Positions 8,953 through 28,138 of a stretch of 34,174 nucleotides of DNA are shown piece by piece. Source of the DNA: Patescibacteria group bacterium. GTDB taxonomy: Bacteria; Patescibacteriota; Microgenomatia; Levybacterales; UBA12049. The notes under the pieces are model-generated. The model was given only the letters and a program-made list of their open reading frames with translations, was not told where the DNA came from and searched no databases. The stretch is from assembly GCA_038062315.1 (NCBI GenBank), contig JBBTXK010000066.1, forward strand, positions 1-34,174, in the 5' to 3' direction. Positions within the stretch are counted from its first letter, which is position 1; each line of letters opens with the position of its first letter. The position numbers and the translations under genes were made by a program.

Positions 8953-10677
8953 ATGAACTTAGCCAAGCCAAAAATTATACTTACAATAATTGTTATGCTT
9001 GCCGCAATTTTGCGGTTTTGGCAGTTGGGAACAAATCCGCTATCTCTTACTTGGGATGAAGCCTCCTGGGGTTATAACGCATATTCTCTAGGAATTGATG
9101 GCCGGGATGAATTTGGAAGATTTCTGCCTTTTGATTATTTAGAATCGTTTGGTGATTTTAAGCCTCCGATGTACGCCTATTTGGATATTGTTCCTATTTG
9201 GATATTCGGGTTAAATGAATTTGCCGTTAGGTTCCCGTCGGCGCTTTTTGGGACATTGACTGTACTTGTTACTTATTTTTTAGTAAAGAGATTGTTTTTT
9301 TCAACGCGAATAAATACGAGTGCCTTGGCATTACTTTCAGCATTTATTTTAGCAATATCTCCTTGGCATATTAATCTTTCTCGGGCGGCATTCGAAGCAA
9401 ATATTGCGACATTTTTTTTGATTTGCGGAGTGTGGCTTTTTTTGTGCGGTGTTTACGAACGAAAATGGTGTCTTGTCTTGTCAATAGCCTCTTTCGTATT
9501 ATCTTTATATACTTTTAACAGCGCCAGGGTTGTTGCCCCTATTTTGGTTTTAATTTTAGGAATAGGCTTTAGAAAAGAGCTCCTAGAACAAAAAAAACAT
9601 GCAATGATAGCATTAGTTGTTGGTATTTTATTAATATTGCCATCACTAAAGTTCTTTCTATCTTCGGAAGCAAACCTTCGTTTTAGAGAGGTTAATATTT
9701 TCTCAGATCCAAAAGTTATTGAAATTGCAAATCAGGAAATTGCAAACGATGGTAATGAATGGTGGTCAAAGATAATTCATAATAGACGATTTGCATATAC
9801 AGTCGCGTATCTAAGACACTATTTTGACAATTTTAACCCCAGCTTTCTTTTTATTAAAGGGGATGGGAATCCTAAATTCTCAACTCAAGATGTCGGACAG
9901 ATGTACTTATGGGATCTGCCGTTTTTAGTCGCTGGAGCATTTGTGCTGCTGCGAAAACGGGAAGGTTGCTGGTGGATAATATCTTTATGGTTGATAATTG
10001 GTATTATTCCGGCTGCTACCGCTCGTGAAACACACCATGCGTTACGAATAGAGGCCGCCTTGCCCACTTTCCAGATTTTGACCGCATATGGAGTTTTCAT
10101 TTTTGTTAATACAATATCAAATATCAATCGCCGATTGAATCTGGGACAAATAGCAAAAATACCTGCTTTGCCGGCAGGCAGGCAGATTAAATATTTAGTA
10201 TTGTCTTTGTGTTTTTTGTTTTTGATCTTTAATTTTTTATATTATTATCATGGTTATTATGCTCATTATCCAAGGGAGTTTTCCGGTGAATGGCAGTATG
10301 GATATAAAGACTCTATAGAATTTGTAGAAACTATCAAGGATGATTTTGATCAAATTAATGTAACGACACTCCTAGGGAGGCCTTATATATATTATCTTTT
10401 TTATACCAAAACCCATCCAGAGGATTTTAGGAGAACTGCGATTGTGCGAGAAGATCCATATGGCTTTACTCATGTAGATGGTTTTGGCGCTTACAAATTT
10501 GGAGATGATTTAAGTAAACTTGACAATGGAAATAAAAGAATTCTCTATGTGAATGTATCAGGCCGTTCTCCAAGAAAGGCAAATATATTTAAAACGGTAA
10601 AGCTATTAAACAATGATCCAGTGTTTACCATTTATGAGATAGTCCACATGCCAGAGGAGGAAAAGAAGAATGAATAA
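8953..10677 (+). CDS. GT-C fold polytopic membrane glycosyltransferase, PMT/ArnT-like (type-A paralog, first of tandem triplet)
   Basis: LAAILRFWQLG, TWDEASWGYNAYS, ISPWHINLSRAAFEAN, ETHHALRIEAALP and a C-terminal domain WQYGYKDSIEF..YYLFYTKTHPEDF..YKFG. Confidence 0.85.
   Translation: MNLAKPKIILTIIVMLAAILRFWQLGTNPLSLTWDEASWGYNAYSLGIDGRDEFGRFLPFDYLESFGDFKPPMYAYLDIVPIWIFGLNEFAVRFPSALFGTLTVLVTYFLVKRLFFSTRINTSALALLSAFILAISPWHINLSRAAFEANIATFFLICGVWLFLCGVYERKWCLVLSIASFVLSLYTFNSARVVAPILVLILGIGFRKELLEQKKHAMIALVVGILLILPSLKFFLSSEANLRFREVNIFSDPKVIEIANQEIANDGNEWWSKIIHNRRFAYTVAYLRHYFDNFNPSFLFIKGDGNPKFSTQDVGQMYLWDLPFLVAGAFVLLRKREGCWWIISLWLIIGIIPAATARETHHALRIEAALPTFQILTAYGVFIFVNTISNINRRLNLGQIAKIPALPAGRQIKYLVLSLCFLFLIFNFLYYYHGYYAHYPREFSGEWQYGYKDSIEFVETIKDDFDQINVTTLLGRPYIYYLFYTKTHPEDFRRTAIVREDPYGFTHVDGFGAYKFGDDLSKLDNGNKRILYVNVSGRSPRKANIFKTVKLLNNDPVFTIYEIVHMPEEEKKNE
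10113..10185 (+). repeat. in-frame mini-element E1: 2x AATATCA, a 15-bp palindrome, a GC hairpin and (GGCA)3
   Basis: AATATCA at 10113-10119 and 10120-10126. TCAATCG-C-CGATTGA at 10124-10138. CCTGC (10162-10166) pairs with GCAGG (10174-10178). GGCA x3 at 10173-10184. Translated as ISNINRRLNLGQIAKIPALPAGRQ; this loop is 12-15 aa longer than in the paralogs at 10670 and 12349. Confidence 0.65.
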
Positions 10678-12352
10678 AAAAAATATTGTTTTCTTAACCC
10701 TGATAGTAATAATAGCGTCTATCTTGAGACTATGGCAGTTAGGCAAAGTTCCTTCATCCCCTGACTGGGATGAGGTTGCATTGGGCTACAATGCGTATTC
10801 GATCATAGAGACAGGTCGGGATGAATATGGCAAGTTTATGCCTCTGTTACTTCGTTCCTTTGATGACTATAAACCGGCACTTTATACATACTTTTCGATT
10901 CCGTTCATAAGCATTTTGGGTTTAAATATCTTTGCTGTTCGTCTGCCCTCTGCTATTTTTGGCATACTGACGGTCGTCGTGACGTACTTTTTAGTGCGAG
11001 AATTATTTAAAGACTCGCGATTTAAATTGGAAGTTGGAAATTGGAAATTGGAAATTCCAGAAGTAACCAGTCTACTTCTGGCTATTTCTCCATGGCATAT
11101 TCAATTTTCTCGTATCGCCTTTGAGTCAAATGTTGCCATGGGGCTTAATGCGATTTCTATCTTGCTTTTTTTAAAAAGTTTTAAAAGACCATTTTTGCTA
11201 CTTTTTGCTGCAATTAGCATGGGGGTAAGTTTTTACATGTACCAAAGCGAGAAAGTATTTGTTCCGCTCCTTCTTATTATTTTAATACTTGTATTTAGAA
11301 AAGAACTTTTTATGATTCCTAAAAAATACAAAGTTGCTTCTGTCGCGATTATATTTTTCATAGCAATACCTATGATATATTATACTTTAACCAATTCCGA
11401 TGCGTTGGCTCGGGCAAAAGGAGTCAGTATCTTTTCTGATCTTACACCCTTTCTGAAAAGGAACGTAGAGAAACTCATAGAAGATAATAACAATAAAGAT
11501 TATTTAGGATTGTTTTTAGACAATAGGAGAATTGAGTTTGCTAAATCTGTAGTATCAGGTTATATTTCGCATTTTGACTTAAATTGGCTGTTTGTTACTG
11601 GCGATATAGAAAGACATCATGCCCCCAATATGGGGCTTTTATATCTATGGGAGCTACCATTTTTATTGATAGGCATGTATAGCCTATTGTTTGGGCCATT
11701 TGATAAGAAAATAAAAATTTTTATCATTTCATGGTTTTTGATAGTGCCTATTCCTGCTTCGGTAACAAGCGGAGTTCCCCATGCTGTACGAGCTCTTAAT
11801 TTTTTGCCGATCTTTCAAATATTTACAGCAATTGGGGTTATTAGTTTTGTAGTATTTATGTCAAATGTAAAATATAAAATAGCAAATATACGAATAGAAT
11901 ATTTGATATTTTATATGTATATTCTATTTTTAACTTTTAATATTTTATACTATCTTAACCAGTATTTTATCCAGCAAAACTACTTTTATTCACAAGCGTG
12001 GCAATACGGCTATAAAGATGCGATTGATTATTTAAACGAAAATCAAGACAAATACGATAAAATTATTGTTTCAAACCAGCCTCATTTAGACCAATCATAT
12101 ATGTTTTTCCTTTTTTATCTTAAATATCCACCGAGCTTATATCAGATAGAGGCAAAAAATTCATCGGGAGGTTTCAGGGAAAATCATAAATTCGGAAAGT
12201 TTGAGTTTAGGCCGATTGTTTGGGATAACGAAATCAAAAGATCAGATATTCTTTATGTAGGCAGACCTCAGGACTTTACAGGCGGTGTGGAAGCAATTAA
12301 AACTATAAATTTTCTCAATGGTAAACCTGCTATTCTAATAGTTACGGGATGA
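10670..12352 (+). CDS. GT-C fold polytopic membrane glycosyltransferase, PMT/ArnT-like (type-A paralog, second of triplet)
   Basis: ILRLWQLG, DWDEVALGYNAYS, ISPWHIQFSRIAFESN, GVPHAVRALNFLP, WQYGYKDAIDY..MFFLFYLKYPPSLYQ..HKFGKFEFRPIVW. The start overlaps the upstream stop by 8 nt. This is the only start in the window with a good upstream GAGGAGG. Confidence 0.85.
   Translation: MNKKNIVFLTLIVIIASILRLWQLGKVPSSPDWDEVALGYNAYSIIETGRDEYGKFMPLLLRSFDDYKPALYTYFSIPFISILGLNIFAVRLPSAIFGILTVVVTYFLVRELFKDSRFKLEVGNWKLEIPEVTSLLLAISPWHIQFSRIAFESNVAMGLNAISILLFLKSFKRPFLLLFAAISMGVSFYMYQSEKVFVPLLLIILILVFRKELFMIPKKYKVASVAIIFFIAIPMIYYTLTNSDALARAKGVSIFSDLTPFLKRNVEKLIEDNNNKDYLGLFLDNRRIEFAKSVVSGYISHFDLNWLFVTGDIERHHAPNMGLLYLWELPFLLIGMYSLLFGPFDKKIKIFIISWFLIVPIPASVTSGVPHAVRALNFLPIFQIFTAIGVISFVVFMSNVKYKIANIRIEYLIFYMYILFLTFNILYYLNQYFIQQNYFYSQAWQYGYKDAIDYLNENQDKYDKIIVSNQPHLDQSYMFFLFYLKYPPSLYQIEAKNSSGGFRENHKFGKFEFRPIVWDNEIKRSDILYVGRPQDFTGGVEAIKTINFLNGKPAILIVTG
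11024..11081 (+). repeat. in-frame mini-element E2: heptamer array (AAATTGG)4.7 plus a 9-bp-stem hairpin
   Basis: AAATTGG AAGTTGG AAATTGG AAATTGG AAATT at 11024-11056. This is followed by CCAGAAGTA (11057-11065), loop ACCAGTC, and TACTTCTGG (11073-11081). Translated as KLEVGNWKLEIPEVTSLL. Confidence 0.9.
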
Positions 12353-14088
12353 TAAAAGAATTTAGAATTAGGAATTTAGAATTAAGAGTTATTGTGTTTG
12401 TAATATGTATTCTTGCAGTGGCTTTGTTTTTACGAATATACTCACTTGATAAAGTTCCGCCCAGTGCTTCATTAGATGAGGTTTCAATTGGTTACAATGC
12501 CTATTCAATCCTCAAGACTGGAGGCGATGAATACGGAAATAAGTTTCCACCGCTTCTGCGCGCGTATGATGATTGGCGGCCAGCATTGTATGTATATTTG
12601 GTGATTCCCTTTATAAAGTTTTTCGACCTTACTGTACTATCTGTTCGTTTGCCTTCAGTTATTCTTTCGGTTTTTACAATTCTTGCTGTTTATTTTTTAG
12701 TAAAAGAAATGTTTAGACGGGAGTTCAAAGCTCAATTCCCGATTCAGTCGGGAACAAAACTCAAAACTGCAGCTCAAAATTCAAAAGTCGAAATAATTGC
12801 GCTTTTTTCTATGTTTTTGCTAGCTATTTCACCTTGGCATATTTATATATCAAGACTTGGACATGAGGTAAATGCCGGCCTTTCTTTTATTGTTTTTGCA
12901 ATTTTATTTTTTATAAAAGCAATCAATAATGCAGGGAAAGGATGGTTTTTAATTTTATCATCTATATTCTTCAGTCTTTCGTTATATACATATCAAAGTG
13001 AAAAAGTTTTTTTTCCCTTAGCGATATTGGTCCTTGGGCTTGTCTATAGAGATAGATTAGTTAAAATTATGAAGTCACTATTAATAGCTGTTATTTTAGC
13101 AGTTATACTTGTTATTCCTATAACGGTATCAACCCTAACTCCGGAAGGTTTAATTCGTTTTAAAGGCACCTCTGCTTTTTTGGAAAATTCTCTCTATCAG
13201 GAAAGCGCCGAGAAAGTTTTAAAATACAAAAATGAGAAAAACGTGTTGGGGCAGATTATTTACAATCGTAGACTAGTGCCTTTGAAAATATTCTCTACAA
13301 ATTATTTATCTCATTTTAGTCCTAAATTTCTTTTTTTCAACAGCGGAAACGAGAGCTTTAAGGCTCCAAGCCTCGGGTTACTCTATATCTGGGAGTTTCC
13401 TTTTTTAATTATTGGATTTATCTATTTGCTTAAATCATTCGGCAAAAAAATTAAACTAATACTTATTCTTTGGGTATTAATTGCCTTTGTTGCGCCTTCT
13501 TTAACAATTGGTTCTCCTCATGCAATGAGAGCGTTTAATGTTTTGCCTGTTCCTCAGATTTTTACAGCTCTTGGTATTTTTTTGTCGATTAATTTTATTA
13601 AAAAATATAAAATTAACCGTTATTTGTTGATCTGTTTTTATGTCTTAGGGCATATTGTTGTTATTTATTTTTTGGGAAGTTTTTATAGGCAGTATTTCTA
13701 TTCCTTCCCAAAAAACCAATCCTCTTCTTTTCAATATTCTTTGAGTAGTTCAATCAGATATGTTCTAGGTATTGAAAAATCCTATGACAAAATCGTTTTT
13801 TCGAATAAGGAAAATCTCTATCAGTCTTATATGTTTTATTTATTTTACAGCAAGTACGATGCTTATCTTTATCAAAAACAAGGCGGAACAGAGTCCGGAG
13901 GATTTGCACAAGAACATAAATTTGGGAAATATGAATTCAGACCAGTTGTCTGGAGCAAAGACCAGCTTATGTCTAACGCTTTGTTTATTGGAAATGTTTC
14001 AGACTTCCCCGGTGATGTGAATTCTGCAAAGAATTTTGCTAACTTGGATGGAAAGGAGGCAATTAAAGTTGTCCATAATAAAGAATAA
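12349..14088 (+). CDS. GT-C fold polytopic membrane glycosyltransferase, PMT/ArnT-like (type-A paralog, third of triplet)
   Basis: SLDEVSIGYNAYS, ISPWHIYISRLGHEVN, GSPHAMRAFNVLP, MFYLFYSKYDAYLYQ..HKFGKYEFRPVVW. ATGA overlap with the upstream gene. Confidence 0.85.
   Translation: MIKEFRIRNLELRVIVFVICILAVALFLRIYSLDKVPPSASLDEVSIGYNAYSILKTGGDEYGNKFPPLLRAYDDWRPALYVYLVIPFIKFFDLTVLSVRLPSVILSVFTILAVYFLVKEMFRREFKAQFPIQSGTKLKTAAQNSKVEIIALFSMFLLAISPWHIYISRLGHEVNAGLSFIVFAILFFIKAINNAGKGWFLILSSIFFSLSLYTYQSEKVFFPLAILVLGLVYRDRLVKIMKSLLIAVILAVILVIPITVSTLTPEGLIRFKGTSAFLENSLYQESAEKVLKYKNEKNVLGQIIYNRRLVPLKIFSTNYLSHFSPKFLFFNSGNESFKAPSLGLLYIWEFPFLIIGFIYLLKSFGKKIKLILILWVLIAFVAPSLTIGSPHAMRAFNVLPVPQIFTALGIFLSINFIKKYKINRYLLICFYVLGHIVVIYFLGSFYRQYFYSFPKNQSSSFQYSLSSSIRYVLGIEKSYDKIVFSNKENLYQSYMFYLFYSKYDAYLYQKQGGTESGGFAQEHKFGKYEFRPVVWSKDQLMSNALFIGNVSDFPGDVNSAKNFANLDGKEAIKVVHNKE
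12358..12385 (+). repeat. in-frame mini-element E3: four heptamers (14-nt unit GAATTTAGAATTA x2)
   Basis: GAATTTA GAATTAG GAATTTA GAATTAA, translated as EFRIRNLEL at codons 4-12 of the 12349 gene. The paralogs lack these roughly 9 N-terminal residues. Confidence 0.7.
12722..12795 (+). repeat. in-frame mini-element E4: heptamers flanking a 7-bp-stem GC hairpin
   Basis: AGTTCAA AGCTCAA (12722-12735). TTCCCGA-TTCAG-TCGGGAA (12736-12754). CAAAACT x2 (12755-12768), GCAGCT, then CAAAATT CAAAAGT CGAAATA (12775-12795). Translated as EFKAQFPIQSGTKLKTAAQNSKVEI. Confidence 0.75.
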
Positions 14089-18680: not shown

Positions 18681-19472
18681 ATGCAGACTATTTCGGTGGT
18701 TTTGGCAACGTATAACGAGGAGAAGAATTTGCCATTGTGTTTGAATTCGGTTAGGGATTTGGCAGATGAAATAATAATTGTTGATGGGTCATCGACAGAT
18801 AAAACTGTTGAGATTGCAACAAAGCATGGGGCAAAGGTCAAAGTTGCTGATAATCCTCCGATATTTCACATTAACAAACAAAAGGCCATAGATATGGCAA
18901 CAAAAGATTGGATATTGCAATTAGATGCTGACGAACGCATTACGCCAGAGCTCTCGGAAGAAATAAAAAAAATAATTGGAAATTGGAAATTGGAAATTGG
19001 AAATTCCGACGTAGTCGGCTATTGGGTTCCGAGGAAGAATTGGTTTTTAGGAAGATTTTTAATGAAGGGCGGGCAGTATCCAGATTACACTCTGCGGCTT
19101 TACAAAAGAGGCAAGGGAGGACTTCCTCAGAAAAGTGTTCATGAGCAAGCAGTGGTGAGAGGAAAAGTTGGTTATCTTAAAAATCCCTTGCTTCACTACC
19201 CTTATCAAAACTTCTGGGGATATCTTATTAAATGGAATCGATATAATGGTTTGCTCGCATATGAAATAAAAGAAAAGATGAAAGATAAAAATACCGCTTC
19301 GAAAATTTTATACTCAATGGGATATCTTTTGATAAAACCCTTGCATTGGTTTTTGATAACCTACATTAGGCACAAAGGCTTTTTGGACTCCTGGCAGGGA
19401 TTTTTGTTTTCAGTGTTTTCTGCTTTAAGGTTCCCTGTAGCGTATATAAAGTATTTAAGACTTAAGTCTTAA
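18681..19472 (+). CDS. GT2 family glycosyltransferase
   Basis: ATG 18681 (MQTISVVLATYNEEKNL) is preferred over the ORF-track start 18633, which overlaps the upstream gene. Motifs IIVDGSSTDKT, LQLDADE (DxD) and FLGRFLMKGGQYPDYTLRLYKRG. Contains the in-frame heptamer array at 18973-19005. Confidence 0.85.
   Translation: MQTISVVLATYNEEKNLPLCLNSVRDLADEIIIVDGSSTDKTVEIATKHGAKVKVADNPPIFHINKQKAIDMATKDWILQLDADERITPELSEEIKKIIGNWKLEIGNSDVVGYWVPRKNWFLGRFLMKGGQYPDYTLRLYKRGKGGLPQKSVHEQAVVRGKVGYLKNPLLHYPYQNFWGYLIKWNRYNGLLAYEIKEKMKDKNTASKILYSMGYLLIKPLHWFLITYIRHKGFLDSWQGFLFSVFSALRFPVAYIKYLRLKS
18973..19018 (+). repeat. in-frame mini-element E5: heptamer array (AAATTGG)4.7 plus a short hairpin
   Basis: TAATTGG AAATTGG AAATTGG AAATTGG AAATT at 18973-19005, then CCGAC-GTA-GTCGG at 19006-19018. 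The 35 nt 18973-19007 match 11024-11058 at 33/35 positions. Translated as IGNWKLEIGNSDVVG in the GT2 gene. Confidence 0.9.
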
Positions 19473-25723: not shown

Positions 25724-26991
25724 GAAAAATAATTAATTTGGCATTTAGACATCCTTTGATTTCCGGAAGCACTGTTATTTTTTTTGGCTCAATGACAGCC
25801 AACATACTTAACTATGTTTTTAATTTAGGCACGGGAAGACTTCTCTCGCACTCCGACTACGGCACACTAATATCTCTTGTTTCCGTATTTAATATTTTTT
25901 CTGTTTTTTCAATTACGATTTCTACTGTTTTCGCGAAGTTTTCTGCCGTGTACGTAGGCCAAAAGAAGGAACAATTGCTCTTGCCTCTTTTTGTTTCTGG
26001 AAGTATGTGGATTGGAATAATATCTGTCTTTGTAGCCATGATAATGATTATTTTTTCTTCACAAATATCACAATTCCTCAATATCAGTTCCGTATTCCTA
26101 GTTAATATTGTAGCTCTTTCTTTGTTTTTTTCGTATTTATCTTCTGTTGGGGTTGGAATTTTACAGGGGTTATTAAAATTTGGATATTACTCTTTCATCA
26201 ATATATTTTCTTCTTTAGTAAAACTTGCACTAGGTATGTTTCTTATTTTCTTTGGGCTCAAGGTTTTAGGGGGAATAGCTGCATTTTTTATATCCATCTT
26301 AGTTGCCTATCTTCTTACCCTTCCTCCAATTTATAGGTTGATGAAAAGAAAAAGCGGAAGTCTTTCTATTCAAAATTTGTTTAGCAAACTTTCTCTTTAC
26401 GGTCTTCCGGTTTTTTTGTCAAATATTGGTATTACTGCATTTATAACTATCGACATCATCTTAGTTAAACATTTTTTTGATCCCGCAGTCGCAGGACAAT
26501 ATTCAGCCATTTCAATTATGGGAAGATCTATTTTTTTTGTAGTTTCTCCAATCACGCTAGTTTTGTTTCCTCTAGTTGCCCAAAAAAAGGAAAGAAAAGA
26601 AGATTTAACAGGGATAGTTTTATTATCACTTTTTCTTGTTGCTGTTCCTGCGGTTCTACTTAGTTTTATTTATTTTATTTTTCCAGAGATAGTTCGCAAT
26701 GTGTTTTACCCTTCTTATGAGGCAAGACTTCTAAATCCATATCTTGGACAGTTTTCGATTTTTATATTGTTTTATGCTTTTATCTATCTTTTGAATTTAT
26801 TTTATCTTTCGATTGGCAAGACTAAGGTTTATATTTTAACTATTTTGGGGTCGGTTTTGGAGATCGTTCTCATTTATTTTTTCCATAAGGATATTGGGCA
26901 GATCATAAATAGCTTGATAACAAGCTCTTTTTTACTTCTTGTTAGTCTTTTGTTGTATTTGCCAAAGGCTACAAAAGATTCTAAAGATTAA
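25720..26991 (+). CDS. MOP/Wzx-type oligosaccharide or polysaccharide flippase
   Basis: 423 aa, hydrophobic throughout (about 12 or more TM segments). The N-terminal pattern ANILNYVFNLGTGRLLSHSDYGTLISLVS is typical of polysaccharide-biosynthesis (Wzx/MurJ superfamily) proteins. ATGA overlap with the GT2 gene. Confidence 0.6.
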   Translation: MRKIINLAFRHPLISGSTVIFFGSMTANILNYVFNLGTGRLLSHSDYGTLISLVSVFNIFSVFSITISTVFAKFSAVYVGQKKEQLLLPLFVSGSMWIGIISVFVAMIMIIFSSQISQFLNISSVFLVNIVALSLFFSYLSSVGVGILQGLLKFGYYSFINIFSSLVKLALGMFLIFFGLKVLGGIAAFFISILVAYLLTLPPIYRLMKRKSGSLSIQNLFSKLSLYGLPVFLSNIGITAFITIDIILVKHFFDPAVAGQYSAISIMGRSIFFVVSPITLVLFPLVAQKKERKEDLTGIVLLSLFLVAVPAVLLSFIYFIFPEIVRNVFYPSYEARLLNPYLGQFSIFILFYAFIYLLNLFYLSIGKTKVYILTILGSVLEIVLIYFFHKDIGQIINSLITSSFLLLVSLLLYLPKATKDSKD

Positions 26992-27001
26992 TTTGTTTAT
27001 T

Positions 27002-28138
27002 ATGCGTATTTTAATTTTTAATTGGAGAGACATAAAGAACCCAGCCTCTGGAGGAGCTGAGATTTTAACCCACGAAATGGCGAAGCGTTGGGTTGGGCAA
27101 AAACATCAAGTAACCCTTTTTACTTCGAAGTTTGATGATGGTAAAGAGACAGAGGTTGTAGATGGTGTAAAGATTATCCGCAAGGGAACATGGTGGACGG
27201 TGCATATATACGCATTTTTCTACTACACAATATATTTAAAAAAAAATACAGATATAATAATTGACGAAGTACATTTTTTTCCTTTTTTTTGTGTCCTTTA
27301 TGCGAGGAAAAAAACCATTGCCTTAGTATGTGAGGTTGCAAACAAACTCTTCTTTACGCTCTTTCCTTATCCTATTGCATTATTGGGAAGAGCGGCTGAA
27401 AAAATATATCTTTGGATGTATAGAAATGTCCCAACGATGGTAATTTCTCCATCAACAGAAAAGGATTTAATAAAAGAAGGACAGAGAAAAGACATAATTC
27501 GTGTTTTGACCTTAGGCATCTCTTATCCTAAAGGCTTAAAAATTCACAAGAAAGAAAATAAACAAACAATTATTTATCTGGCAAGAATAAATAAGCAAAA
27601 AGGAGCGCTGGAAGCAATTGAAGCATTTTCCATTGTTGAAAAAGAAATTGCAAATTGCCAGTTATGGATTGTAGGTTCAGGAGTCTCAGATTATATTACG
27701 ATGTTACGCAAAAAAATCAGTGATTATAAAATTGTTCATTCCGTAAAATTCTTAGGTTTTGTTTCAGAGAAACGAAAGTTCGAGCTTTTATCAAAGGCTC
27801 ATATACTTATTGTTCCGTCAGTACATGAGGGCTGGGGATTGACTGTTCCCGAAGCAGGGTCAGTGGGTACACCAGCAATTGTATATGATGTTCCCGGTCT
27901 TCGTGATGTGGTTAGAGATGGAATAAATGGCATTATTGTAAATAAGACCCCTGCACATCTTGCGGAAGGAATTAGAGAAGTTTTTACAAATAAAAGTAAA
28001 TATCAAGCATTATGCAATGGCGCAAAGAAAGAAAGCGAGAAATATAATTGGGACAAGACAGCAGAAGTCGCATTAGAAGTATTAAATTCGAAGTTAGAAT
28101 TTCCCGCTTCGCAGCGAGGCAAGGGAAATCCGAAATAA
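27002..28138 (+). CDS. GT4 family (GT-B fold) glycosyltransferase
   Basis: ATG 27002 (MRILIFNWRDIKNPASGGAE) is preferred; the ORF-track start 26939 lies inside the flippase gene. VPSVHEGWGLTVPEAGSVGTPAIVYDVPGLRDVV (EX7E region). The last 16 codons are formed by repeat element E6. Confidence 0.85.
   Translation: MRILIFNWRDIKNPASGGAEILTHEMAKRWVGQKHQVTLFTSKFDDGKETEVVDGVKIIRKGTWWTVHIYAFFYYTIYLKKNTDIIIDEVHFFPFFCVLYARKKTIALVCEVANKLFFTLFPYPIALLGRAAEKIYLWMYRNVPTMVISPSTEKDLIKEGQRKDIIRVLTLGISYPKGLKIHKKENKQTIIYLARINKQKGALEAIEAFSIVEKEIANCQLWIVGSGVSDYITMLRKKISDYKIVHSVKFLGFVSEKRKFELLSKAHILIVPSVHEGWGLTVPEAGSVGTPAIVYDVPGLRDVVRDGINGIIVNKTPAHLAEGIREVFTNKSKYQALCNGAKKESEKYNWDKTAEVALEVLNSKLEFPASQRGKGNPK
28084..28129 (+). 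repeat. in-frame mini-element E6: heptamers plus a composite GC hairpin, forming the C-terminal tail of the GT4 gene
   Basis: AAATTCG AAGTTAG AATTT (compare AAATTGG AAGTTGG AAATT in E2). Outer stem ATTTCCC (28099-28105) pairs with GGGAAAT (28123-28129). Inner stem GCTTCGC (28106-28112) pairs with GCGAGGC (28114-28120), with one G-T pair. Translated as NSKLEFPASQRGKGN. Confidence 0.75.

Follow-up and report, generated by a model that had tools for sequence, protein, structure and literature searches.

Two heptanucleotide arrays in unrelated glycosyltransferase genes

The window analysed here is the whole of a 34,174-nt (34 kb) contig, JBBTXK010000066.1, from a Levybacteria-like member of the Patescibacteria in Hainich groundwater. 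Within it, two genes for unrelated glycosyltransferases each carry, in frame, a short tandem array of the seven-base unit AAATTGG. One host encodes a family-2 glycosyltransferase (GT2; PF00535, Glycos_transf_2) and the other a PMT-type glycosyltransferase of the GT-C class (PF13231/PF02366). The arrays, their hosts and the inverted repeats that abut them are as follows.

18681-19472, plus strand: host gene 1, family-2 glycosyltransferase of 263 aa (P0001), with its DxD motif at residues 82-84 and array-coded residues 99-108
18973-19005, plus strand: heptanucleotide array (AATTGGA)x4.6, perfect, in the GT2 gene, encoding I-G-N-W-K-L-E-I-G-N(S)
19006-19018, plus strand: inverted repeat CCGAC-GTA-GTCGG, abutting the GT2 array, codons S-D-V-V-G
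10670-12352, plus strand: host gene 2, GT-C / PMT_2 glycosyltransferase of 560 aa (P0121), with the array in a variable loop between YFLVRELF and LLLAISPWH
11024-11056, plus strand: second array (AAATTGG)x4.7, with one A-to-G mismatch, in the GT-C (PMT_2) gene, encoding K-L-E-V-G-N-W-K-L-E-I
11057-11081, plus strand: hairpin CCAGAAGTA / TACTTCTGG, 9 bp perfect with the 7-nt loop ACCAGTC, abutting the GT-C array

An earlier note on this DNA had drawn attention to a 33/35-identical heptamer block in the unrelated GT2 and GT-C genes, and alignment, Tandem Repeats Finder (TRF) and Pfam all bear this out. The block TAATTGGAAATTGGAAATTGGAAATTGGAAATTCC (18973-19007) differs from AAATTGGAAGTTGGAAATTGGAAATTGGAAATTCC (11024-11058) at 2 of 35 positions, the former being spelled TAATTGG(AAATTGG)3AAATTCC and the latter AAATTGGAAGTTGG(AAATTGG)2AAATTCC. 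TRF assigns a period of 7 to both, as (AATTGGA)x4.6 at 100% over 18974-19005 and (AAATTGG)x4.7 at 92% over 11024-11056. When the window was scanned with the AAATTGG 21-mer, allowing up to three mismatches, all six overlapping matches fell within the two arrays, against 0.02 expected from shuffled sequence. Similarly, a tandem-repeat scan at a relaxed threshold found seven period-7 regions in the window where 0.05 were expected, making 7 the sole enriched period; the same scan returned no tandem regions of periods 4-6 or 8-12. Each array is read in a frame of its own, yet both encode the same cyclic heptapeptide (KLEVGNWKLEI in GT-C, IGNWKLEIGN in GT2), because three 7-nt units make 21 nt, or seven codons, and every frame therefore yields the same heptapeptide.

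Arrays occupy hypervariable loops and keep the reading frame

Across 120 aligned GT2 orthologues (67-78% identity), the segment from EIKxxI to NGYW varies in length between about 5 and about 25 residues. The family consensus has no conserved residues across the array segment, and the array loop is missing or shorter in most orthologues; IGNWKLEIGNS is thus indeed extra in this protein, as had been suspected from the single sequence. In an AlphaFold2 model of the GT2 (mean predicted local distance difference test score, pLDDT, of 87.9), the array-coded residues form the end of helix 89-103 and the loop 104-110, with the segment about 15 residues past the DxD motif (82-84) and its confidence at about 71 pLDDT versus at least 90 nearby. 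The array extends the helix end and the loop, most likely as a neutral passenger.

The GT2 loop exists in several states at the protein level: no array (for example KKVVDGGSEYNGYW), KIGN-SV, and KIGNWKLEIGNSV, together with variants such as IRNSKLEIRNS and IENCKLKIENC and arrays broken by GC-rich inserts (for example NWKLPASPRGEGIRTS). Other GT2 clades have differing heptamer-coded loops that also repeat every seven residues, namely NHKSSIINHKS and NRQSSIVNRQS. At the DNA level, one orthologue (L197; comparison loci are numbered with the prefix L) reads AAA ATT GGA AAT TCC (KIGNS; AAATTGGAAATTCC), or 1.7 units, and the window, L121 and seven more GT2 genes read AAAATTGG(AAATTGG)3AAATTC, or 4.7 units; KIGNWKLEIGNS is the state of the GT2 site in the window, L121 and others. 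GT-C orthologues are just as varied, having between YFLVKELF and LLLAISPWH either nothing, FKLEIPEV, LKLEIGNWKLEIPEV, FSIFNFQFSI, KLEIGPPAGGLKLEI or long GC-rich inserts. L193 carries 1.6 units at this site and L194 a different array, (ATTTTCA)4.6, while L191 and L192 have nucleotide-perfect arrays of 4.7 units plus the same CCAGAAGTA arm, despite GT-C proteins just 62-63% identical to that of the window. Filled and empty orthologous sites both exist, intermediate and decayed states are abundant, and the hypervariable loops are hot spots for the arrays. Only in-frame lengths (1.7 and 4.7 units) occur among the GT2 and GT-C orthologues. The two window arrays are equally long because 1.7 plus three units is the smallest in-frame step. 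In a neighbour-joining tree of the GT2 orthologues, array carriers are scattered among array-free ones, the tree being too weakly resolved for gains and losses to be counted.

Two orthologous GT2 arrays have changed in concert. In L195 the units read AAATTAG AAATTCG AAATTAG AAATTAG AAATTCA, with the would-be in-frame TAG now TCG, and in L200 they read AAATTGA AAATTGC AAATTGA GAATTGA AAATTGC, with the would-be in-frame TGA now TGC. Each lineage has its own base in three units, changed precisely where TAG or TGA would fall in frame. Given this concerted change and the avoidance of stops, the arrays therefore appear to evolve as DNA repeats, through turnover or homogenisation, with selection only keeping the frame open. 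Indeed, arrays are nucleotide-perfect in L121, L191 and L192, orthologues that were found via protein similarity at 62-74% amino acid identity. Across nine GT2 genes, wherever a residue of the 60 flanking codons is identical, its codon is identical too in only 47-49% of cases, versus 98% within the array, a comparison partly biased by the retrieval of most loci with the array pattern, a bias from which L121, L191 and L192 are free. Perfect arrays amid such diverged flanking codons are a sign of homogenisation acting on the DNA itself.

A dispersed AAATTGG family that includes essential genes

A genome search for exact matches to 2.7 units, with one genome per species, returned at least 120 loci, and about half of the matches listed were from Patescibacteria of many classes. 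Arrays are present, for instance, in relatives (L024, L031, L042, L054, L076 and L079) of the genetically tractable Saccharibacteria (PMC10633639). Other loci, with a local GC content of 59-67%, were from Acidobacteriota, Planctomycetota, Verrucomicrobiota, Nitrospirae, Gemmatimonadota and Caulobacteraceae. Long arrays, the largest reaching 18 units, came up in a peptide search: cultured Moraxella sp. K1664 and Tychonema have them, as do Terriglobia and a Caudoviricetes record; a search with so short a peptide picks up long arrays only, mostly in spurious short open reading frames (ORFs), and is no census of short coding arrays. Of 126 arrays that were placed, 76 are well within ORFs of at least 150 aa, 13 are at ORF edges and 37 are intergenic, which puts 89 (~70%) within an ORF or at its edge. 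Between them, the 84 ORFs that host arrays have matches to 142 Pfam families, among them class I aminoacyl-tRNA synthetases (8), GT4 (7), Mur ligases (3), TsaD, MnmA, KsgA, Fmt and UvrD. When set against solved structures, the array adds 11 aa between GRSEG and VFTTRPDT in leucyl-tRNA synthetase (LeuRS), where a second array site follows SWYYLRY; it adds 12 aa in elongation factor 4 (EF4); and in MurE it amounts to +1 aa, with ISNFQFPIF replacing IDKRKPYLV.

Of the 192 heptamer classes with five A/T bases, 35 are free of stops in every one of the six frames, AAATTGG among them. The unit fits any gene, frame and orientation because all six frames are stop-free and each forward frame codes for GNWKLEI. 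Among the arrays within ORFs, 57 are antisense (coding PISNFQF) versus 19 sense, an approximately 3-fold bias, and both window arrays are in the minority orientation. The AAATTGG strand has a negative GC skew in 78 of 118 loci, a tally in which the directions of replication and transcription are confounded.

The 861 kb of loci also hold 70 additional perfect period-7 arrays, built from 45 other units of which many have an AAAT(T) core; perfect arrays with periods of 5, 6, 8, 9 and 10 number 0, 2, 25, 15 and 10 in the same sequence. Among viral contigs, AAATTGG arrays were present in 19, versus 14, 16 and 22 for three permuted heptamers. The idea that AAATTGG is uniquely favoured was rejected on the equal frequency of these permuted heptamers in viral contigs. 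The heptamer period is demonstrably special; this particular unit is not necessarily so.

Perfect palindromes adjoin the arrays

Both window arrays end in CC, which forms the first bases of an inverted repeat. In RNA folding, the 5-bp GT2 repeat is not significant alone (z = 0.02) and the GT-C hairpin has z = -1.87. The earlier note had remarked on the shared CC and on the weakness of CCGAC-GTA-GTCGG by itself, and had seen an arrangement of array and hairpin that is conserved while the stems differ; this arrangement proves to be statistically real across the family. Perfect stems of at least 8 bp that start no more than 8 nt from the 3' end of the AAATTGG strand accompany 14% of 124 arrays; the corresponding shares are 1.4% for positions drawn at random from those loci and 4% for the opposite side of the array. 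For stems of at least 9 bp the figures are 11% at arrays versus 0.7% in the control. By context, stems of at least 8 bp accompany 22% of antisense-in-ORF arrays, 5% of sense arrays and 7% of intergenic ones. Across loci, no conserved termini or common sequence were found among the stems, and the heptamer alone is shared.

In the GT-C hairpin, the arm near the array codes for P-E-V and the far arm is made of conserved L-L-L-A codons in a transmembrane helix. In all five cases that could be placed on conserved proteins, conserved native codons form the far arm and the near arm falls in variable positions, the far-arm codons being LLLA (window GT-C), GKSE and WYYLAY (LeuRS), QILL (MurE) and GITIKLQP (EF4). 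Therefore, the near arm must be the copied or adapted one, although a near arm in variable sequence is partly expected, since arrays occupy variable loops. Perfect palindromes of 9-13 bp in coding sequence favour templated copying, for example snap-back or quasipalindrome template switching, over point mutation as their probable source.

The GT2 site itself is found with the hairpin CCGAC-GTA-GTCGG (window, L153 and L163), with CYCGY-NNNN-GCGGG (L135, L147 and L189) and without a hairpin (SVNGYW; L121, L124 and L130). The window, L153 and L163 are three different GT2 genes that share an identical 51 nt, consisting of array, hairpin and GGYTATTGG, and their flanking synonymous sites are saturated. 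Three stems are imperfect (L193, L010 and L189), and in all three the imperfections on the AAATTGG strand are G-T wobbles. For the GT2 hairpin, covariation was considered and set aside: its two stems differ in register, and the changes inside any one register are C-to-T and one-sided. At the gathering threshold, no Rfam family matched the arrays of the window or of nine loci, and with Rfam silent there a known RNA family, CRISPR or tRNA was ruled out.

A further example of an array beside a palindrome comes from a Saccharibacteria metagenome-assembled genome (MAG), where a single leucyl-tRNA synthetase (L024 1848-3287, minus strand) has two arrays, ISNFQFPIS past SWYYLAY and ISNFQFSIS in the C-terminal half. 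The first of these abuts the 9-bp perfect palindrome CCTCGCATA/TATGCGAGG on the conserved YLAY codons.

Array length among related loci

A DNA pattern agnostic to length (a GT2 array of at least 2.3 units, then GGNTAYTGG within 5-14 nt) matched nine metagenome GT2 loci from two GT2 subfamilies, comprising seven distinct sequences beside the window, and all of them have 4.7 units. Alleles of 2.7, 3.7 or 5.7 units, or frameshifted GT2 alleles, were absent among these nine loci. The array has the same length in L198 (CAYIAJ010000002.1), a contig that is 99.95% identical to the window and was found via the neighbouring epimerase gene. The length agreement of L123 and of L121/L122 is circular, these contigs having been retrieved by exact protein identity, and L198 is the sole independent one.

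L198 and the window differ by two substitutions in the 4 kb compared, and the L198 GT2 (688-1497) is called at 269 aa versus 263 aa in the window (...LKSYKFKSL*); one of the two substitutions probably removes the stop codon of the window GT2. A programmed -1 frameshift site was rejected: AAATTGG does not fit the X XXY YYZ pattern of slippery heptamers, and translation of the ORF continues in frame.

Origin of the arrays

The block is an in-frame heptanucleotide array of the class known as short tandemly repeated repetitive sequences (STRR) or long simple sequence repeats (LSSR), and belongs to a dispersed AAATTGG family. Like that class it has head-to-tail 7-nt units in three or more copies, occurs at many loci in many genomes and comes from a background in which period 7 is over-represented; with ~70% of arrays in or at ORFs the family is not mainly intergenic, a location that describes the earlier examples and is not definitional for STRR / LSSR. 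The copy-paste element proposed in the earlier note survives in the sense that a dispersed repeat family occurs in unrelated genes, and not in the sense of one array having given rise to the other: the window arrays are better read as two members of the family than as copies of each other.

We regard replication misalignment at hairpin stalls, followed by selection for frame, as the most likely mechanism, with a probability of roughly 0.58. By this account, arrays would arise and turn over through slippage between direct repeats, with strand or template switching at polymerase-stalling hairpins contributing, and would colonise structurally tolerant surface loops of proteins. Selection would then retain frame-preserving lengths only, in 3-unit steps (21 nt, 7 aa), and would repair units that would make an in-frame stop. 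What the sequences show directly is the family itself, the loop hot spots, the states of 1.7 and 4.7 units, the concerted change with stop avoidance and the excess of hairpins; slippage with template switching, and neutrality, are inferred.

Several points weigh against it. Pure local slippage is insufficient to explain the same unit and 14-nt remnant AAATTGGAAATTCC in two unrelated genes and different frames, AT-rich arrays in genomes of 60-67% GC, or the identical 51 nt across three GT2 genes with saturated synonymous flanks. Growth from 1.7 to 4.7 units by single steps passes through two frameshifted states, and the constant 4.7 units at GT2 suits a fixed cassette equally well as frame selection. 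The permuted controls, which cover viral contigs, give AAATTGG no special standing, and the codon-identity contrast carries the retrieval bias described above.

Some of these points would fit a mobile or enzyme-made mini-cassette, in which a dedicated process inserts modules of 'inverted flank copy + heptamer array' that spread horizontally; template-directed repeat addition, snap-back repair synthesis at hairpin-stalled forks or breaks, and a hairpin-targeting element are candidates. The polar order of array, near arm, loop and far arm, with a native far arm in five of five genes, speaks for it, as do stems of 9-13 bp that are perfect within ORFs and hard to reach via point mutation, the sharply bounded 51 nt identical in the window, L153 and L163, the presence of the AAATTGG unit in high-GC phyla and the 57:19 antisense bias. 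However, the hairpins are without conserved termini or shared sequence, in contrast to miniature inverted-repeat transposable elements (MITE), repetitive extragenic palindromes (REP) and REP doublets forming hairpins (REPIN), in which a conserved element has conserved terminal or hairpin arms; here the stems differ per locus. Moreover, target-site duplications were not seen, the loci also hold many heptamer units of other kinds, AAATTGG is not above the permuted controls in viral contigs, the MurE array replaces a loop at near-equal length with no insertion, and no candidate enzyme has been identified. The near arm would be variable under any model, arrays being in variable loops. We therefore consider a mini-cassette unlikely. 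A bolder form, which we hold to be quite unlikely, is that modules of the type 'native arm - loop - inverted arm copy - (AAATTGG)n' are scars of an unrecognised process of templated DNA synthesis or repair, acting across phyla by snap-back priming and reiterated 7-base addition and writing frame-neutral, stop-free cassettes into essential genes. Such a process would resemble templated insertions of the polymerase-theta type or telomerase-like repeat addition. Selection on the nucleotides themselves is a different possibility, with array and hairpin acting as a functional DNA or RNA signal in cis, for example as tandem sites for a cold-shock, S1-type or CsrA-type protein or as a replication or transcription pause site. 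Nucleotide-perfect arrays versus saturated synonymous flanks are consistent with this, and so are hairpins kept at the same place with differing sequences and three imperfect stems that are all G-T wobbles; binding proteins of this kind were proposed by MacGregor for TAACTGA repeats (PMC4679880). The heterogeneity of hosts, positions and orientations argues the other way, as do the many orthologues with no array or a decayed one, the lack of an Rfam family, and a GT2 hairpin that is thermodynamically ordinary and whose different registers leave covariation not scorable, so that a cis-acting signal seems distinctly improbable.

The two remaining alternatives concern the encoded proteins, and we give both little credence. 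The earlier note had envisaged a contingency locus, in which slipped-strand gain or loss of 7 nt toggles GT2 and GT-C and thereby varies surface glycans. The unit is indeed not a multiple of 3 and lies inside both ORFs, the arrays are pure, their glycosyltransferase hosts sit in a glycosylation cluster, and the concerted unit change shows slippage over evolutionary time. Length variation among relatives, including out-of-frame lengths, was nevertheless not what the comparison of related GT2 loci revealed: nine of nine pattern-search loci have 4.7 units and L198 has the same, against the 13-24 units of the (ATCTTTC)n heptanucleotide switch of hmwA (PMC8262952). Nor are the arrays confined to dispensable surface genes, with examples in LeuRS, MurE, EF4, TsaD, KsgA and Fmt, and on/off switching is implausible because the same arrays occur in the essential LeuRS, MurE and EF4. 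A contingency locus is thus not supported and we think it very unlikely. Selection for the GNWKLEI heptad as a peptide, perhaps a beta-hairpin or binding epitope, is less credible still. WKLEI alternates hydrophobic and polar residues and leads into a GN turn, a pattern from which a hairpin could form, and the loop is surface-exposed in the GT2 model; against this, three quarters of ORF arrays are read from the opposite strand to give PISNFQF, synonymous sites are conserved too, many orthologues are without the motif, and W freely becomes S, P, L or C just where the unit variant would give a stop.

Relation to known repeats

Quasipalindrome template-switch mutagenesis and slipped misalignment in E. 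coli, work associated with Ripley and the Lovett laboratory, have reportedly been demonstrated for single events in reporter genes. Template switching of this kind accounts for perfect palindromes, with one arm copied from the other, and for tandem duplications at stall sites, but it is not known to produce heptamer arrays on a genome-wide scale. Rickettsia palindromic elements, reportedly described by Ogata et al. in 2000, and the small dispersed repeats of cyanobacteria (Elhai et al. 2008, cited in PMC3116915) are tiny selfish repeats that sit in frame in coding genes at surface-exposed positions. They share with the present loci small hairpins nested in other repeats, here a 23-nt GC hairpin in L196 and at window position 28103. 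They are conserved elements of 21-150 nt with conserved hairpin arms; here, by contrast, it is the tandem heptamer that is conserved, and each locus has hairpin arms of its own, made in part of native coding sequence.

STRR / LSSR have been known since 1990 (Mazel et al., Calothrix), and Mrazek, Guo and Shah in 2007 found heptamers to be the most abundant class of LSSR and proposed slippage, as reviewed in PMC4692102 and PMC4679880. STRR / LSSR resemble the present arrays in their head-to-tail 7-nt units, many loci per genome, over-representation of period 7 and occasional inverted pairs, with function and origin unexplained and polymerase slippage proposed. The examples described earlier are mostly intergenic and come from cyanobacteria, Xanthomonas and Burkholderia, whereas the arrays described here are mostly in ORFs, including essential genes, occur in Patescibacteria, have a unit open in six frames and abut perfect palindromes. 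The TAACTGA repeats of Beggiatoaceae, Cyanobacteria and Bacteroidetes are likewise a single heptamer shared across distant phyla, their mechanism of transfer being unknown (MacGregor 2015, PMC4679880); they come in sets of 2-6 copies and are occasionally in ORFs at protein peripheries. Unlike AAATTGG, which is stop-free and found in internal protein loops, TAACTGA has stops in all three forward frames and hence is intergenic, upstream of start codons, where translational regulation was proposed (PMC4679880). The (ATCTTTC)n tracts between the hmwA promoters of Haemophilus influenzae are also 7-nt tandem units linked to genes for surface structures, and a change of one unit would alter expression (PMC8262952). 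In contrast to the present arrays, they are 13-24 units long, are located in promoters and vary from strain to strain as well as inside a single strain (PMC8262952); those described here have 4.7 units, a count invariant across the pattern-search GT2 orthologues, and are also in housekeeping genes.

New here are the coding location, including essential genes of Patescibacteria; a six-frame-open unit that gives the same peptide in each frame; the three-unit in-frame step; concerted change with stop avoidance; and the polar link to palindromes on native codons. A literature search found no paper linking heptamer repeats with Patescibacteria, and text searches with the sequence and the peptide were likewise blank.

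Other repeats and the genomic setting

Besides its two intact AAATTGG-family copies, the window has at least three decayed ones. The period-7 remnants and small elements are as follows.

12356-12391, plus strand: period-7 run AAGAATT / GAATTTAGAATTAG from the period-7 scan, at the N-terminus of the next GT-C paralogue (MIKEFRIRNLELRV)
12726-12795, plus strand: decayed CAAAACT-type heptamer run in the next GT-C paralogue (12349-14088), in the loop equivalent to that of the GT-C array, interrupted by a hairpin
12736-12754, plus strand: that hairpin, an inverted repeat TTCCCGA-TTCAG-TCGGGAA in the CAAAACT-type run
28072-28102, plus strand: decayed array of ATTAGAA-type units of the same family (D4, 74% identity), close to the 3' end of the ORF 26939-28138
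28103-28125, plus strand: GC-rich hairpin element CCCGCTTCGCAGCGAGGCAAGGG of 23 nt, abutting the decayed array and coding for PASQRGK

A near-identical element, CCCGCTTCGCCGCGAGGCGAGGG, splits the GT2 array in a different Levybacteria genome (L196 628-650; peptide PASPRGE), and the consensus of the two is CCCGCTTCGC(A/C)GCGAGGC(A/G)AGGG. The 23-nt GC hairpin thus has the look of another tiny dispersed element, one that favours heptamer arrays.

The window as a whole is a glycosylation island, with at least 10 tandem GT-C / PMT_2-like paralogues of 475-607 aa, together with GT2, GT4, epimerase/dehydratase and GT87/MptA-like genes and a Polysacc_synt flippase, nearly all of them on the plus strand. 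Cumulative GC skew climbs across the entire window (1-34174). The arrays at 11024-11056 and 18973-19005 are direct repeats 7.9 kb apart, and if they recombined, in whatever 7-nt register, six genes could be lost and the N-terminus of the GT-C joined to the C-terminus of the GT2; no trace of such recombination appears in the window and the near-identical L198, which are colinear.

In the comparison loci, differing heptamer runs stand back to back in the flanks of L015, L112, L103, L030 and L008, as in the (GTTAAGG)n (AAATTAG)5 (AAATTGG)2.7 (CGCAATC)n of a Bacteroidales MAG, and L011, L028, L087 and L096 have hairpins of the form array-loop-inverted array. Some metagenome contigs of 42-62% GC share a conserved element of ~38 nt, CTTGGAAATTGGAAATTCCTTGTTGGATATTGGAYATT, with unrelated flanks (L134, L136 with two copies, L143, L155, L159-L162, L164-L167, L170, L174, L183 and L190). 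It forms an inverted pair in L161 and stands opposite the complementary CCAACAAGGAATATCCAAGG in L164, and Rfam had no match to it in the six loci tested (L136, L143, L159, L161, L164 and L183).

Implications

In practical terms, the GT2 gene is not to be annotated as phase-variable from its sequence alone. If the explanation by misalignment and frame selection is true, many of the odd insertions that lengthen proteins of Patescibacteria (the Candidate Phyla Radiation) would be seven-base satellites settled in permissive loops and not adaptive domains, which would matter for annotation, alignment, phylogeny and structure prediction in these lineages. Coding arrays, whose dynamics are recorded in sequence, also offer a tractable system for asking why heptamers dominate bacterial LSSR, and the perfect palindromes that adjoin them point to a specific, testable mechanism of misalignment.

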